In this document: in pieces, positions 1 through 5,320 of the stretch
Numbering within the stretch: the stretch's first letter is position 1
Layout of the letters: each line of letters starts with the position of its first letter
Source: a virus
Taxonomy: Duplodnaviria > Heunggongvirae > Uroviricota > Caudoviricetes
Strand: one strand, 5' to 3'
Length of the DNA stretch: 8,430 nucleotides
Virus record (IMG/VR): IMGVR_UViG_2684622619_000023
Translations under genes and position numbers: made by a program
Notes under the pieces: model-generated
Database searches by the model: none
Seen by the model: the letters and a program-made list of their open reading frames with translations, nothing else
Told to the model about the DNA's origin: nothing

Positions 1-174
1 CGGATTAAGGCCGTACTGGTTGGCGACGATCAACAATGCGATGAACTGCGCATCGCTGGCATCACCTTTAAATGCCGTCTGGCGAAGAGTGGTGATCAGT
101 TCCTGTGGGTCGACAGAATCCATGCCGACACGTTCAGCCAGCTTCCCTGCCAGCGTTGCGAGTGCTGTACTCAT
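1..174 (-). CDS. bet: Bet (Red beta) single-strand annealing recombinase, N-terminal 58 codons only; the rest lies beyond the left edge of the window
   Basis: Minus-strand ATG at 174-172. Translation MSTALATLAGKLAERVGMDSVDPQELITTLRQTAFKGDASDAQFIALLIVANQYGLNP matches my recollection of the lambda Bet N-terminus. It starts 5 nt after the gam stop, as in lambda. Homology is from memory, not a search. Confidence 0.92.
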   Translation of the reverse strand, partial: MSTALATLAGKLAERVGMDSVDPQELITTLRQTAFKGDASDAQFIALLIVANQYGLNP

Positions 175-179
175 CCGTT

Positions 180-476
180 TTATACCTCTGAATCAATATC
201 AACCTGGTGGTGAGCAATGGTTTCAACCATGTACCGGATGTGTTCTGCCATGCGCTCCTGAAACTCAACATCGTCATCAAACGCACGGGTAATGGCTTTT
301 TTGCTGGCCCCGTGGCGTTGCAAATGATCGATGCAGAGTGATTCAAACAGGTGCTGTGGAAGACCTTTTTCCATGTCGTCTGCCAGTTCTGCCTCTTTCT
401 CTTCACGGGCAATCTGCTGGTAATGACGCGCCCAGCTCTGAGCCTCAAGACGATCCTGAATGTAATAAGCGTTCAT
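180..476 (-). CDS. gam: Gam, host RecBCD nuclease inhibitor, 98-aa short (GamS-length) form
   Basis: 98-aa [101 protein letters not shown], near-identical to the recalled C-terminal 98 residues of lambda Gam. Directly upstream of bet on the same strand. In-frame upstream codons reach a TAA at 531-533 without any ATG, GTG or TTG. Confidence 0.9.
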
Positions 477-551
477 GGCTGAACTCCTGAAAATGGCTGT
501 GAATATATCGCCCGCGAAATGCCGGGCTGATTAGGTAAACAGGAAAGGGGA

Positions 552-962
552 TTAGTGATTCAGGCCGTTGCCGCGTCCGTCGAGAAAAACTTCCACGAGC
601 AAATCACGGGTATAAGTGCGCTCGATGCCGCGATGCAGATAAAGCCGTCCGCGTAAATTAGCTGATGCAGTCCAGGTACCATCTTTGTGTTTGACCAGCA
701 TTCCTGGCATGACCGCACCGCGATTAACGGTCTGCGTTCCGTAATGTTGATGAACCATAAAAACTCCTGCCCGTAAGCTGGGCTGCTGAACATATAGAGA
801 CTTCTGCGCGTATTCAGGCGGTGGATGGCCGCCGGTTGTCATAACTAAGCCGCCTCGTTGAAGCGACTGAGGTATGAGGTGTTGAGTTGATTTCAGCTGG
901 TCACACCGACGTTCACGCGTCCGCTTCACCCCTCGCACTTCCCGGAGCCTGCTGAAATTCAA
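552..962 (-). CDS. Hypothetical protein, first ORF downstream of the putative PL (N/kil position); Arg-rich N-terminal segment; start codon uncertain
   Basis: Only substantial ORF between the candidate PL and gam. The track start is a TTG (RC of 960-962); alternative starts are the GTG at the GVK codons, with GGGAAG about 7 nt upstream, or the internal ATG at MTTGG. The stop (cactaa) sits at the position where the lambda kil stop lies relative to gam. N-terminal [20 protein letters not shown] resembles an arginine-rich motif. No recalled homologue; could be partly spurious. Confidence 0.3.
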
Positions 963-1029
963 GCTGCGGATCTAAGCGGTCATCGCAACGGTGAATCAGG
1001 TGGTTGCCGTATCGTTGTGTTGTTGCGAT

Positions 1030-1110
1030 GAATTTATTTAAAACTATAGTTGTTTTGTCGTCAACAACAAAAGTTGTTTTATTGGTTTTTTTAGATGTAA
1101 ATGGTTGTAT
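1030..1110 (-). promoter_or_regulatory. Candidate PL promoter with OL operator-like palindromes, directing leftward transcription into the 552-962 ORF, gam and bet
   Basis: On the minus strand: -35 TTGACG (plus 1059-1064), 17-nt spacer ACAAAACAACTATAGTT, -10 TTAAAT (plus 1036-1041). This closely mirrors the PR candidate (TTGACT, spacer AAAAACAACCATAGTTT, TAATCT). GTTGTT/AACAAC half-sites at 1049-1054, 1063-1068 and 1073-1078, and AAATGGTTGT at 1098-1108, are shared with the OR region. Confidence 0.45.
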
Positions 1111-1207
1111 TTAGGATGGATTTATTTTGTGACTTGCATCGCATAGCGATAACTGAAGCGAGGTCGTGGTGGTTTTTTGAATGGTTTGTGTGATGAGGGG
1201 GAGGGGC

Positions 1208-1234
1208 AAAAGAAAACCCGGCACGGTGGCCGGG
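1208..1234 (-). terminator. Rho-independent terminator ending the leftward cI-cassette transcript
   Basis: Minus-strand RNA reads CCCGGC-CACCGU-GCCGGG (6-bp GC stem, 6-nt loop; plus 1217-1234) followed by UUUUCUUUU (plus 1208-1216). It begins 5 nt after the stop of the ASCH gene (1239-1241). Confidence 0.7.
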
Positions 1235-1238
1235 ATTC

Positions 1239-1616
1239 TTACGCAGGTAGGTAAAGATATGATTGTGGTGGCTTAATATTACTACCTAGAGCAGAGATAG
1301 GAATTGGTTCTTTATATCTTTCCACTTCACCAATTTTTATTGCGTAGGCCTTTTCTCTACCTGAATAATATGAGTCATAAAATTGCTTAGAAATACCTGC
1401 GTGTTTTTCCGTCTTTTTCCAAAGAGATTCCGGTTCGTCACTTAGTATTGATTCAATACGGAATTGACCAACAACTTTACCTAATGGCATCGTGGCATAA
1501 ATAACAACGGTGCTAATTTGCGGATTTTTGAATATACCTTTACGAAACTCGAACCGCTTTGTTCCGTTCAATATTTTTTCTGCAAACTCAGGCTTAATGG
1601 ATAATAAAACTTTCAT
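1239..1616 (-). CDS. ASCH-domain (PUA-like fold) protein, 125 aa; second gene of the AT-rich cassette
   Basis: N-terminus MKVLLSIKPEFAEKILNGTKRFEFRKG carries the ASCH GxKxxExR signature (G-T-K-R-F-E-F-R). Size and pattern are typical of standalone ASCH proteins. Overlaps the upstream gene by 23 nt (translational coupling). AT-rich compared with the flanking phage genes. Confidence 0.8.
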   Translation of the reverse strand: MKVLLSIKPEFAEKILNGTKRFEFRKGIFKNPQISTVVIYATMPLGKVVGQFRIESILSDEPESLWKKTEKHAGISKQFYDSYYSGREKAYAIKIGEVERYKEPIPISALGSNIKPPQSYLYLPA

Positions 1617-2667
1617 TTATCTTGCCTAACTCGATGATCTTTAAGAACTGCTCATTTGTGAGTTTAAAGTGACTCCATCGGAATGCACGCGAACCATTTA
1701 GCCCCACATGATCTATTAAAATAGCACGATTGGGTCTCTTTGGCAAAGACAGATTGTATGTGAATCTTATAATGAAAGGGTATCGACGTTCTTTATAGAT
1801 TTTTCTGAGTTCATCTTCAGAAAATACGCTAAAACGAATACAATAGTCTACAAAACTATCTTCGCTTAAAAATTCAGAAATATTTTTTACGCTCTCAACT
1901 ACACATAATGTACTGGCTACAGAACGATAGCGAGCTGGCCCTTTTTTGTCTCCGGTTCTATAGATGACAATGATATCTCCTCTTTTCATTCCCATCACAG
2001 AACGCATTCCACATATGTAAATTTTATGAATGCTGTTAGCATGGGATATATCTTTGACAATATCTGGTGATTCATTTACAAGTTTTGAATCAGGGAATAG
2101 TCTAGTGTGATATTCGGGATAAATCGCCAGTAAATATTTGTTGGCTCTTGATGTCATTATTCGAGGGTAATCTAATAAAATATCACCATAAGGCTCATGC
2201 AAAGACCTCGCATATACAAACTCTTTCCCGTTATGTGTTTCTTTTTCACCATGAATGTAAAATCCGTACGTTTGGAAAAGTTTTATTAGATGGACGTGTT
2301 TGTCGAAAACAGTAACATAAATATCATCAGATTTTGATGAAAATGCATGGTCAAACGCTTTTTTTAGAAATCGTTGTCCGCGAAGGGTGCCTTTAGATTC
2401 AAATTTGAATGTTCCTATCTTTAGATGACGTCCTGGTGGGAGCGCTGGATTAATGTCATTTGCATCATCATTTTCTTTTAGATACATAAAACCTTCGATT
2501 TTATGCTTGTCATCATAGAGCACATAAGCTGATTCTCCTTCTCTGGCTTTTTTTTCTAACCAAAGAGGAAACTCTTTATAATCTTTTTTTAAAGAGTCAA
2601 AAAATGGGTCATTGTGATCAAAATCAGAGAATTTCTCATATTTTAAAGTATCCATTAAGTTCTCCAT
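1594..2667 (-). CDS. Hypothetical two-domain protein, 357 aa: N-terminal GNAT-like acyltransferase-like region, C-terminal PUA-like (EVE/ASCH-type) beta-barrel-like region; first gene of the AT-rich cassette
   Basis: Long AT-rich ORF. N-terminal half has GNAT-like strand/helix patterns (AYVLYDDKHKIEGFMYLK; HLKIGTFKF; GTLRGQRFLKKAFDHA; DDIYVTVFDKHVHLIKLFQTYGFYIHGE). C-terminal half (IYICGMRSVMGMKRGDIIVIYRTGD...YRSVASTLCVVESV) resembles PUA-like barrels. The ATG at 2667-2665 has no good SD; the in-frame ATG at 2655-2653 is preceded by GGAG at 6-nt spacing, so the true start may be 2655 (353 aa). Domain calls are by eye and tentative. Confidence 0.8.
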   Translation of the reverse strand: MENLMDTLKYEKFSDFDHNDPFFDSLKKDYKEFPLWLEKKAREGESAYVLYDDKHKIEGFMYLKENDDANDINPALPPGRHLKIGTFKFESKGTLRGQRFLKKAFDHAFSSKSDDIYVTVFDKHVHLIKLFQTYGFYIHGEKETHNGKEFVYARSLHEPYGDILLDYPRIMTSRANKYLLAIYPEYHTRLFPDSKLVNESPDIVKDISHANSIHKIYICGMRSVMGMKRGDIIVIYRTGDKKGPARYRSVASTLCVVESVKNISEFLSEDSFVDYCIRFSVFSEDELRKIYKERRYPFIIRFTYNLSLPKRPNRAILIDHVGLNGSRAFRWSHFKLTNEQFLKIIELGKINESFIIH

Positions 2668-2735
2668 TCTAAAATGAATAATTAAGTTGTTTTACTGAAT
2701 GAGCACAATGCCCGGTTGATAATTTTTAATTGGTA

Positions 2736-3425
2736 CTATCCATGCTTCCTATACGTCTGCGGCATGCTCCCAATAACTTTCCCGAAGATAAACACCCGGT
2801 TCATCTCGTCTTTCTCGATTGGGTCCCACGGTGAGTAGCTCTTGTTATCAGAGATAACCAGCAGTTTATCCTTCATCATTTGCAGGCGCTTTACATGGGC
2901 TGTGTCGTCGTACAGAAACGCATAGATACCATCACCGTCGAAAGATTTAACCGTGATATCAACGAACAGCAGATCACCAGGTTCAATCGTTCCTGACATG
3001 CTGTCACCGCGTACGTTAATGATGCGGATATTTTCTGCCTTCCTGCCATCGAACATGTGACGAGCATCGTCAAACGAGTACTCAACCGAGCGTAGGACTT
3101 CTACAAACTCACGGTTGATGACACCCGGCCCGGCACTCACTTCTATATCAAGAACGTCAATCTTAAAGTATTTGGAATGGCTGACAGTTGGTTGTATTGG
3201 TTGCACTGTACTGTCTGACATATTTCCAACGCCAGAAGATAACCATTCTGCGCGCACACCCAAAGCGTTCGCGATCTCCACGATTTTAGTTGTTTGATTA
3301 GCTTTCCCTGTTTCGATTTTCTGAATAGCAGCTTGGCTAACCCCGACCAAATCCCCAAGCGCCTTTTGTGTAAGGCCTCGCGCTAATCTGGCTTCTTTAA
3401 GTCTTTCTGAGAGTGTTGTTTTCAT
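2736..3425 (-). CDS. cI: Phage CI-type repressor (XRE-family HTH N-domain + LexA-like S24 peptidase C-domain)
   Basis: 229-aa ORF. N-terminal HTH (LTQKALGDLVGVSQAAIQKIETGK). C-terminal S24 autopeptidase features (GDSMSGTIEPGDLLFVD with catalytic Ser; downstream HVKRL Lys). Divergently oriented from cro across an operator-rich intergenic region. Not lambda-cI-like in sequence, i.e. a different immunity type. Confidence 0.88.
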   Translation of the reverse strand: MKTTLSERLKEARLARGLTQKALGDLVGVSQAAIQKIETGKANQTTKIVEIANALGVRAEWLSSGVGNMSDSTVQPIQPTVSHSKYFKIDVLDIEVSAGPGVINREFVEVLRSVEYSFDDARHMFDGRKAENIRIINVRGDSMSGTIEPGDLLFVDITVKSFDGDGIYAFLYDDTAHVKRLQMMKDKLLVISDNKSYSPWDPIEKDEMNRVFIFGKVIGSMPQTYRKHG

Positions 3426-3529
3426 AGTTCAAATGTACAACCAAGGTTTTATTCCATCAAACGAAAATGGTTGTTGACTAAAAACAACCATAGTTTTAAT
3501 CTTGATTCAAATTAACCACGGAGGTTGTT
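3426..3529. promoter_or_regulatory. Immunity control region: OR operators with divergent PR (rightward to cro) and PRM (leftward to cI) candidates
   Basis: PR: TTGACT 3474-3479, 17-nt spacer, TAATCT 3497-3502, then GGAGG 3520-3524 and cro ATG at 3530. Perfect 9/9 inverted repeat ATGGTTGTT (3467-3475) / AACAACCAT (3483-3491) overlaps the PR -35. Additional half-sites ACAACCA at 3437-3443 and GGTTGTT at 3523-3529. PRM candidate on the minus strand: TTGATG, 17 nt, TACATT, ending about 6 nt before the cI ATG, so cI mRNA may be leaderless as in lambda. Confidence 0.6.
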
Positions 3530-3760
3530 ATGAACCCAGCTATTAAAACAGCGATCAATATCGTTGGTTCACAAAAGAAACTGGGCGCTGCTTGCGAAGT
3601 TTCACAGCAGGCCGTCTATAAGTGGCTTCACAACAAAGCAAAGGTATCCCCTGAACATGTCGGCAGCATTGTTACGGCTACTGGTGGAGTAGTGAAGGCA
3701 CACCAGATTCGCCCGGATCTTCCGAAGTTGTTTCCACACACCGAAAAGAACGCAGCTTAA
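3530..3760 (+). CDS. cro: Cro-like repressor, YdaS-type HTH regulator
   Basis: 76-aa ORF directly downstream of the PR candidate with a GGAGG RBS. HTH-like segment KKLGAACEVSQQAVYKWLHNK. Position and size as for cro; sequence resembles Rac-type YdaS/Cro regulators rather than lambda Cro (from memory). Confidence 0.8.
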   Translation: MNPAIKTAINIVGSQKKLGAACEVSQQAVYKWLHNKAKVSPEHVGSIVTATGGVVKAHQIRPDLPKLFPHTEKNAA

Positions 3761-3772
3761 ATTTCCATTTCA

Positions 3773-3785
3773 CGCTCTTTAACAA
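3773..3785 (+). promoter_or_regulatory. boxA-like element in the nutR position
   Basis: CGCTCTTTAACAA lies 13 nt after the cro stop. It matches the boxA consensus (lambda nut boxA CGCTCTTA; rrn boxA GCTCTTTAACAA). No convincing GC-rich boxB hairpin follows. Confidence 0.4.
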
Positions 3786-3829
3786 TAAGCAATCAACTTA
3801 ACAGTCAATTCAAACTAAAGGAGTCAATT

Positions 3830-4369
3830 ATGCAACCACTTACATACCAACAGACTAGCGGATTTAGCCCGACTGCGGTGATAAATCGTTCTCAAACAAA
3901 ACAGGTGCCAGGCCACGAAAAAATCCGTGATGCCGTCCGCGCCTGGTCGGCTGAAGATAATCAGGATGTCGTTGCCACACTCATTGTGAATGAGTATCGG
4001 GAGCAGGGCGGCGGCACCATCGATTTCCCTGATGATGTCAGCCGTGCACGCCAGAAGCTGTTCCGCTTCCTCGATAACAAATTCGATTCTGAAAAATACC
4101 GAAATAACGTGCGTGAACTGACCCCGGCAATTCTGGCGGTACTACCGCTGGAATATCGCGGTTACCTGGTTGAGCAGGATAGCTTTATGGCTAGGTTGGC
4201 TGAAATGGAAAAGGAACTCAGTGAGGCAAAACAGGCTGTCATTCTCAACGCACCACGCCACCAGAAACTGAAGGAAATTAGTGAAGGTATTGTGTCGATG
4301 TTTCGTGTGGACCCAGATCTGGCTGGTCCACTGATGGCGATGGTCACCACCATGCTGGGGGCAATATGA
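3830..4369 (+). CDS. YdaT-like protein occupying the cII position (function uncertain; regulator or toxin-like)
   Basis: 179-aa ORF with AAGGAG RBS 7 nt upstream. Motifs EYREQGGGTIDFP and LTPAILAVLPLEYR resemble what I recall of the Rac prophage YdaT family, which follows ydaS-type cro genes. Stop overlaps a downstream ATG (ATGA at 4366-4369). Confidence 0.6.
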   Translation: MQPLTYQQTSGFSPTAVINRSQTKQVPGHEKIRDAVRAWSAEDNQDVVATLIVNEYREQGGGTIDFPDDVSRARQKLFRFLDNKFDSEKYRNNVRELTPAILAVLPLEYRGYLVEQDSFMARLAEMEKELSEAKQAVILNAPRHQKLKEISEGIVSMFRVDPDLAGPLMAMVTTMLGAI

Positions 4370-4455
4370 CAGGTTCAGAAATGGCGAAAGCCGGTCTGCT
4401 GGAACAGAACCGACTTTCAGGTGCAAATCGTAACGCACTCATTGCGGGAGGAATT

Positions 4456-5320
4456 ATGGCAAACACTGCTGAGATATTCAATTTTCCAGTGCCGGATGTG
4501 GCACAAAAGGAGCCGCGCGTGGCAGATCTCGATGATGGTTATACGCGCATTGCAAATGAGTTGCTGGAAGCTGTGATGCTGGCCGGATTAACACAGCACC
4601 AGCTTCTGGTCTTCCTGGCTGTCATGCGCAAAACATATGGCTTTAATAAAAAACTGGATTGGGTGAGCAACGAGCAACTTTCCGAATTGACCGGGATATT
4701 GCCGCACAAGTGTTCTGCTGCAAAAAGCGTTCTGGTAAAGCGTGGGATTCTTATTCAGAGCGGGCGGAATACCGGCATTAATAATGTGGTCAGTGAATGG
4801 TCAACATTACCCGAATCAGGTAAGAAAAATAAAGTTTACCTGAAAGAGGTAAATTTACCTGAATCAGGTAAAAAAAGTTTACCCAAATCAGGTAAAGACG
4901 TTTACCCGAATCAGGTAAACACAAAAGACAAAATAACAAAAGACAATATAAAACCTTATTCGTCCGAGAATTCTGGCGAATCCTCTGACCAGCCAGAAAA
5001 CGACCTTCCTGTGGTGAAACCGGATGCTGCGATTCAGAGCGGCAGCAAGTGGGGGACAGCAGAAGACCTGACCGCCGCAGAGTGGATGTTTGANNNNNNN
5101 NNNNNNNNNNNNNNNNNNNNNNNNNNNNNNNNNNNNNNNNNNNTTCCGCTGGGCATGCCAGGACAACTTCTGGTCCGGTAACGTGCTAAGTCCGGCCAAA
5201 CTCCGTGACAAGTGGACCCAACTCGAAATCAACCGTAACAAGCAACAGGCTGGAGTGACAGCCGGAAAATCAAAACTGGACCTGACAAACACTGACTGGA
5301 TTTATGGGGTGGATTTATGA
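4456..5320 (+). CDS. O: Replication initiator protein O (lambda O-like); reading frame interrupted by a 50-nt run of N (5094-5143)
   Basis: ATG at 4456 with GGGAGG 5 nt upstream; N-terminus MANTAEIFNFPVPDVAQKEPRVADLDDGYTRIANELLEA parallels lambda O MTNTAKILNF...VADLDDGYARLSN. After the gap, the frame ending at 5320 gives ...FWSGNVLSPAKLRDKWTQLEINRNKQQAGVTAGKSKLDLTNTDWIYGVDL, matching the lambda O C-terminus. The in-frame ATG at 4366 is an alternative but less likely start. Confidence 0.88.
4807..4956. repeat. Origin of replication (ori-lambda-like) inside the O gene: five 17-bp iterons plus an AT-rich region
   Basis: Iterons TTACC(C/T)(G/A)AA(T/A)(C/G)AGGTAA at 4807-4823, 4836-4852 (degenerate), 4855-4871, 4879-4895 and 4902-4918, each with inverted ends TTACC/GGTAA. 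Followed by the A-rich stretch ACAAAAGACAAAATAACAAAAGACAATATAAAA (4920-4956). Same organisation as lambda ori within the O linker. Confidence 0.8.
5094..5143. other. Run of 50 N (assembly gap or masked bases) inside gene O
   Basis: Directly visible. The O reading frames before and after the run differ by one position, so 50 is not the true missing length. Confidence 0.99.

Follow-up and report, generated by a model that had tools for sequence, protein, structure and literature searches.

The 97-bp block at 1029-1125 (minus strand) of the window, which is the whole 8,430-nucleotide stretch of DNA analysed here, is very probably (rough probability 0.85) the OL/PL region of a lambdoid prophage, bound by the CI repressor and the counterpart of OR/PR at 3432-3502. 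The putative CI operators in the two regions are most likely 14-bp, 434-like sites of the form ACAAC-N4-GTT(G/T)T, with two to three at OL and three at OR. The arrangement is the ordinary lambdoid two-sided immunity architecture, as found in lambda and 434, and leaves the understanding of lambdoid regulation unchanged; its sole mildly unusual aspect is a split pair of patches that appear to be co-selected.

The DNA of the window belongs to a lambda-like Escherichia coli phage and makes up its early region. Phage PhiR47_2 matches it at 98% identity over 99% of its length, and phage 4A7 and its relatives match it at about 97% identity over 92%. The divergent cI (minus strand) and cro (plus strand) genes are separated by an intergenic region of 104 bp with three 14-bp sites at 3437-3497, which overlap PR and PRM. 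The CI translation shows the Ala-Gly (VSAGPG), GDSM, and VKRL motifs of an S24 autocleavage domain. Leftward of cI lie a cargo slot and a strong terminator, then the OL/PL cassette and the kil operon; rightward, the genes past the cII analogue are O, P, and ren. The features of this region are as follows:

180-476, minus strand: gam, after kil in the leftward operon
552-758, minus strand: kil, the first gene of the leftward operon (annotation of relatives, Pfam/PHROG)
794-1028, minus strand: predicted untranslated PL leader, conserved between both immunity types (codon-position substitution counts, extent of the PHROG Kil match)
1029-1125, minus strand: exchangeable OL/PL cassette of 97 bp, spanning the distal operator half-site to about +1
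1217-1234, minus strand: intrinsic terminator closing the cI-gevT-gevA transcript ahead of OL, 6 G-C pairs and then a T-run
1239-2667, minus strand: cargo slot between cI and OL (PV340567 annotation, Pfam and PHROG matches)
1239-1616, minus strand: GevA, with an ASCH domain, in the cargo slot
1594-2667, minus strand: GevT, in the cargo slot
2736-3425, minus strand: cI repressor, Pfam HTH_3 (N-terminal, 434-like HTH) and Peptidase_S24 (C-terminal, autocleavage)
3293-3828: second swapped patch (N-terminal domain of cI, OR, and cro), unmatched at the nucleotide level in 4A7
3530-3760, plus strand: cro, YdaS type (Pfam YdaS_toxin, PHROG)
3830-4369, plus strand: YdaT-type cII analogue (Pfam YdaT_toxin, PHROG)

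GevT is a protein of 357 residues whose N-terminal part is acetyltransferase-like by PHROG; GevT and GevA are annotated as toxin and antitoxin in PV340567, and no paper describing them was found in the searchable literature. A run of 50 N at 5094-5143 lies inside the O replication gene. Since PhiR47_2 carries 115 bp at this place, the run stands for sequence that was masked or left unassembled, for which the ori iteron region is a plausible identity.

PL and PR are near-duplicate modules on opposite strands. The minus strand from 1064 to 1036 reads TTGACG, a 17-nt spacer (ACAAAACAACTATAGTT), and TTAAAT, and the plus strand from 3474 to 3502 reads TTGACT, a 17-nt spacer (AAAAACAACCATAGTTT), and TAATCT; both promoters are as the original prediction had given them, and its three half-site hexamers (1049-1054, minus strand; 1063-1068, plus strand; 1073-1078, minus strand) are exact to the position. 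Their alignment, GTTGTTGAC-N-A(C)AAAACAAC-Y-ATAGTTTTAA, requires one gap of 1 nt. A repeat search returns 1038-1056 and 3481-3499 as 19-nt inverted arms that are 95% complementary, with one mismatch; this is the only inverted 19-mer pair in the window with at most one mismatch, and 0 of 100 dinucleotide-preserving shuffles yield one. AACAAC/GTTGTT is present in 15 copies in the window, compared with 5.9 ± 2.5 expected, and none of 200 shuffles reaches 15. The 19-mer pair, the alignment, and the shuffles together bear out the claim that PL/OL mirrors PR/OR. The promoter and operator elements, with scores from the weight matrix described below, are:

1036-1041, minus strand: PL -10, TTAAAT, at a 17-nt spacing, as read; cassette B has TATTAT at the same block offset, 85-90
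1040-1053, minus strand: OL1, ACAACTATAGTTTT, 20.5 bits, the best match in the window; overlaps the PL spacer and -10
1059-1064, minus strand: PL -35, TTGACG, as read; its counterpart in cassette B, likewise at block offset 62-67, is TTGATA
1064-1077, minus strand: OL2, ACAACTTTTGTTGT, 17.2 bits; perfect 5-bp arms; abuts the PL -35
1095-1108, minus strand: candidate OL3, conserved only in its strong half, ACAACCA (1102-1108)
3432-3460, minus strand: candidate PRM, TTGATG (3460-3455)-17-TACATT (3437-3432), hexamers as read, promoter predicted
3437-3450, plus strand: OR3, ACAACCAAGGTTTT, 18.1 bits; overlaps the PRM -10
3461-3474, minus strand: OR2, ACAACCATTTTCGT, 14.9 bits; between the PRM -35 and the PR -35
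3474-3502, plus strand: PR, TTGACT (3474-3479)-17-TAATCT (3497-3502), read directly
3484-3497, plus strand: OR1, ACAACCATAGTTTT, 19.3 bits; overlaps the PR spacer and -10

Both PL and PR escape a generic sigma-70 scan of the window because their -10 hexamers are weak: that of PR scores 8/12, and that of PL is without the A at position 2. Promoter calls made from the window therefore rest on good -35 boxes, spacing, and position, and gain support from comparison with other phages. In phages of Klebsiella, Providencia, and Erwinia, TTGACT or TTGACA is likewise joined to OL2 and TTAAAT or TTTAAT stands at the equivalent place of the PL -10, while the aligned PR -10 is TATTCT, TATTAT, or TATAAT; the PL -10 hexamer is also invariant in 34 distinct variants of cassette A, the allele of the window. 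The leftward start that had been placed near 1029, and the -10 chosen for it, are supported by the offsets that cassettes A and B share and by the end of the exchanged block about 7 nt past the -10; PL transcription is thus predicted to start near 1029. A rightward promoter-like match, TTGCGA-16-TATAGT (1023-1050, plus strand), overlaps OL1 and would be antisense to gevA; it is probably a chance match because its -10 is the palindromic centre of OL1.

The weight matrix used to score operators was trained solely on 15 sites of three phages from other genera (Klebsiella, Providencia, and Erwinia) that have the same recognition helix in CI. With this foreign-site matrix, OL1, OR1, OR3, OL2, and OR2 are the five best distinct sites of the window, which has 12 matches of at least 10 bits compared with 1.5 expected from shuffles. 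A plain search for ACAAC-N4-GTTGT with up to two mismatches gives 10 matches (4.3 expected), six of them within the two short control regions. All six sites have ACAAC in one half; the other half is TTGT in OL2 only and is TTTT, TCGT, or ACAT in the rest. Conservation across genera supports the 14-bp frame of the sites. The centres of OL1 and OL2 are 24 bp apart, and the same 24-bp pair occurs in each of the three other-genus phages (L086, L087, and L088). Among A-cassettes, OL1 has no recurrent polymorphism, and only 1 of the 17 recurrent polymorphisms found in 34 distinct cassettes falls within the 37 bp of the -10, OL1, -35, and OL2 (binomial estimate from these counts, p ~0.003). The candidate OL3 has a low matrix score and a weak half that is polymorphic at 1097 and 1101. 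All four phages carry AAACAACCA upstream of OL2. The distal half-site ACAACCA is separated from the OL2 start by 31, 31, 42, and 41 nt in them, and a shift of about one helical turn between these values would keep its phase. The cI coding sequence contains an additional operator-like 14-mer, ACAACTAAAATCGT (11.8 bits; 3280-3293, minus strand), which is about 145 bp away from OR3 and at the left edge of the swapped patch.

The half-sites of the original prediction are real, but most likely they pair not across the -35 but within the 14-bp sites AAAAC-N4-GTTGT at 1040-1053 and ACAAC-N4-GTTGT at 1064-1077. In OL1, GTTGTT at 1049-1054 makes up the strong half and AAAAC (1040-1044) is its partner, and the AACAAC that begins at 1063 and the GTTGTT that begins at 1073 together form OL2. 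An operator that consists instead of the long palindrome across the -35, with one dimer on half-sites about 17 bp apart, is unlikely. This palindrome (ATGGTTGTT-N7-AACAACCAT at 3467-3491) is the strongest of OR, has 9-bp arms that are picked up as a stem-loop, and has an equivalent at OL (GTTGTT-N8-AACAAC at 1049-1068). A long palindrome over each -35 arises automatically, however, because the strong halves of O1 and O2 face each other. The arm spacing is 7 at OR but 8 at OL; OR3, which has no such partner, nevertheless does not vary in 80 loci and is kept in three other genera; and the weak halves GTTTT and ACGAA are conserved in the 14-bp frame. The CI of the window is also homologous to the 434 repressor, and HTH dimers of the 434 type read half-sites about one helical turn apart, as the 14-bp frame would have it.

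The homology to 434 lies in the N-terminal domain of CI, which matches the 434 repressor (1per/2or1 chains) at E = 4.7e-9 over residues 5-68; about 38% of 64 residues are identical. Phage 434 has operators of 14 bp with ACAA in the outer position. The putative operators of the window appear to share with them the length, the invariant outer ACAA of the strong half, and the variable centre, and OL2 fits ACAA-N6-TTGT exactly; they differ in that site position 5 is fixed as C and most weak halves read TTTT. For its recognition helix, CI has QAAIQKIE here but QQSIEQLE in 434, a difference at 4 of 8 positions, and the Cro of the window is not 434-Cro-like.

Closer relatives of this N-terminal domain are found in phages of three other genera, Klebsiella ST101-KPC2phi6.1 (74% identity), Providencia PSTCR7lys (65%), and Erwinia phiEt88 (61%), all of which keep the recognition helix GVSQAAIQKIETG. 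In each, the cI-cro intergenic region has three 14-mers in the places and at the spacing seen in the window, whereas the central 4 bp and the DNA between sites diverge. Downstream of cI and the cargo (rexAB in the Klebsiella phage) is a further pair of 14-mers at a distance of 24 bp. The distal member of the pair is joined to a TTGAC(N) -35 that is followed 17 nt on by TTAAAT or TTTAAT. A look for the half-site in related phages, which had been proposed as a check, thus finds the whole OR3-OR2-OR1 and OL2-OL1 arrangement kept in three other genera. Yersinia phage YP3 (L089), with an N-terminal domain 58% identical, was left out of this comparison, as its intergenic region has no comparable sites and its layout is different; BTP1, Klebsiella phage 6, and PhiR68_2 were rejected as diverged relatives since they carry the B N-terminal domain.

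The same four phages (the window and L086-L088) keep the elements of the candidate PRM, TTGnnn-17-TAnnTT followed after 6-7 nt by ATG. In the window, 6 nt lie between TACATT and the first base of the cI ATG, and a Shine-Dalgarno sequence is absent. From this we infer a lambda-like leaderless PRM, with OR2 beside its -35 and OR3 over its -10.

The OL/PL cassette and the OR region are exchanged together. Phage 4A7 is 96% identical to the window over 1-3292 and 98% over 3829-5093, with 3293-3828 unmatched; 1029 to ~1122 is also replaced in 4A7, between flanks of 96-100% identity, and the two phages have the cI C-terminal domain and the gevTA cargo in common. Of 80 IMG/VR loci fetched via Kil, 76 have a block of exactly 97 bp between conserved anchors. 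In 41 loci this block is allele A, with ACAAC sites, and in 35 it is allele B, with the CAATAGCAA motif. Allele A accompanies an A-type cI N-terminus and A-type cro in 37/37 loci and allele B the B types in 35/35 (four loci are truncated), a total of 72/72 that overstates the number of independent events because the compared loci are related prophages. In both alleles, block positions 62-67 hold the -35 and positions 85-90 hold the -10 (TTGACG-17-TTAAAT in A, TTGATA-17-TATTAT in B), and the motif of allele B clusters only at its own OL and OR. The cI C-terminal domain is common to all A and B loci. At least 12 length classes of the cargo slot, between 230 and 1892 bp, are present in the loci, several of them with both alleles, so recombination between the patches looks frequent. 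In a separate set of 80 loci, fetched via this cI, the OL block accompanies the gene wherever the flank is long enough (76/76 loci), and its distance from cI takes more than 12 different values. The operator sites in their arrangement are, in these comparisons, strictly co-inherited with the repressor's DNA-binding domain.

Type B, represented by BTP1, ST104, and 4A7, has a near-identical cI C-terminal domain but differs from type A in its N-terminal domain (50% identical), its motif CAATAGCAA, and its cro. The E. coli phages of type B (4A7 and the IMG/VR loci) have the same flanks, 97-bp OL cassette, and promoter offsets as type A; in BTP1 an N gene follows PL. The A/B allele pair is a clean natural case of operator-repressor co-variation. 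Immunity specificity may be split into two patches, an OL/PL cassette of 97 bp with its end at the transcription start and a stretch of 536 bp with the cI N-terminus, OR, and cro, the two being kept matched by selection while the intervening DNA, which comprises the cI C-terminal domain and a cargo slot for defence genes, recombines freely between heteroimmune phages; the odds on this proposal are about even. If it is true, the matched patches provide a natural two-allele system for repressor-operator co-evolution and for long-range epistasis in phage mosaics.

Because the cI N-terminus and cro are swapped jointly, sequence cannot tell CI from Cro as the binder, and the block could be bound mainly by the YdaS-type Cro or by another factor, with CI acting at OR only. 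This is very unlikely: the form of the sites is that of the 434-repressor family, to which CI belongs and Cro does not, and a kil operon left unrepressed would harm the lysogen, lambda Kil being harmful to the host. In the analogous region of prophage CP-933P, moreover, repressor and YdaS are both reported to regulate a PL (PMC8630535).

Control of both early promoters by CI, the one repressor that the original prediction had assumed, is supported by the co-inheritance of alleles and by the sites in other genera. CI dimers would bind the 14-bp operators at OL and OR. Occupancy of OL1 and OL2 would occlude PL and shut off the leader, kil, gam, and bet; occupancy of OR1 and OR2 would occlude PR and shut off cro, the ydaT-type cII, O, and P. 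The YdaS-type Cro presumably acts on the same sites as CI. Upon DNA damage (SOS), autocleavage of CI would free PL and PR together. In this scheme CI binding, cooperativity, any OL-OR looping, PRM activation, and the transcription start sites are predictions. That the similarity of PL and PR instead has no regulatory role and stems from module exchange, from a recombination junction, or from duplication of an AT-rich linker is scarcely credible even though the block edges a cargo slot of high variability and its mosaic boundaries are sharp, since a junction need not match the repressor allele in 72/72 related loci, identical -35 and -10 offsets would be unexpected in two unrelated alleles, and the sites are kept across four genera though the surrounding DNA diverges.

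The putatively CI-controlled pair of regions resembles that of lambda in its divergent cI and cro genes flanking a three-site OR; in a second operator cluster on a leftward promoter about 2.4 kb away, past cargo (rexAB in lambda) and a terminator; in a centre-to-centre spacing of 23-24 bp; and in the position of O2 beside the PRM -35, the leaderless cI, and the S24 C-terminal domain. It differs from lambda in that the operators are 14 bp rather than 17 bp and unrelated in sequence, Cro and CII are of the YdaS and YdaT types, and OL3 is only a half-site; in contrast to lambda, 434, and P22, there is no N gene after PL. CP-933P/Sp12 is similar in using YdaS as Cro and YdaT as CII and in its leaderless repressor gene; experiments there are reported to place a distant PL under the same proteins as PR, and the -35 and -10 elements of this PL are reported to be identical, apparently to those of PR (PMC8630535). 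CP-933P/Sp12 differs in its repressor, PaaR2, which is without S24, in its repeats, which have the consensus GTTTAGTAA, and in its cargo, paaA2-parE2 (PMC8630535).

Transcription from PL would run through a leader of about 235 nt and then kil, gam, and bet, as a partial Kil match and the lack of a coding signature upstream of it indicate. A 136-codon open reading frame at 552-962 (minus strand) has an Arg-rich start, and its PHROG Kil match is restricted to residues 60-136; variable sites by codon position are 11/6/5 in 794-962 and 4/6/17 in kil. An N-like antiterminator in the extension of this frame was rejected, as 794-962 has no third-position excess and the Kil match starts at residue 60, and no N-type antiterminator is annotated after PL in close relatives. 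The 794-962 extension is annotated as part of Kil in PV340567 and is without a coding signature. A search of the whole window against Rfam (E <= 1) returned only chance matches of eukaryotic miRNA and snoRNA type, with nothing in the PL leader, the folding energy of which is not unusual (z = -0.79). The first ~25 nt of the predicted PL transcript (CATCGCAACAACACAACGATA; 1005-1029, minus strand) resemble those of the heteroimmune phage HK639 (CATCGAAACGAAACATCGATA; L092, ~345-370, minus strand), and both 5' ends have a short ATCG...CGAT inverted repeat, so there may be a conserved 5' hairpin at the start of the PL transcript in the two phages. A put-like RNA was considered and rejected because similarity to the HK639 putL-like RNA does not extend past the first ~25 nt.

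Among complete E. coli genomes, the OL block is found in 1518/5426 and the block of cI N-terminus, OR, and cro in 1524/5426 (~28%), so that the two have near-equal genome counts. Only six recently sequenced phage records (PhiR47_2, PhiR26_1, PhiR34_1, PhiR5_1, IdasGreatGrand, and Turner) have the CI N-terminal domain at an identity of at least 95%, and no description of the operator strings or of this immunity type, the PhiR phages included, was found in the searchable literature. The present analysis gives a sequence-level definition of the operators and a promoter map for an immunity type present in ~28% of complete E. coli genomes, with which predictions on superinfection immunity, on induction, and on how cargo defence genes are expressed in such prophages can be made and easily tested. 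The same immunity region is present in O157:H7 strain EC4115 (L090, 2961495-2993635), in a prophage integrated next to mlrA (yehV). IS1203 interrupts the P gene of this prophage, and genes of DLP12-like character (emrE, ybcK-ybcO, rusA, and Q) follow downstream.
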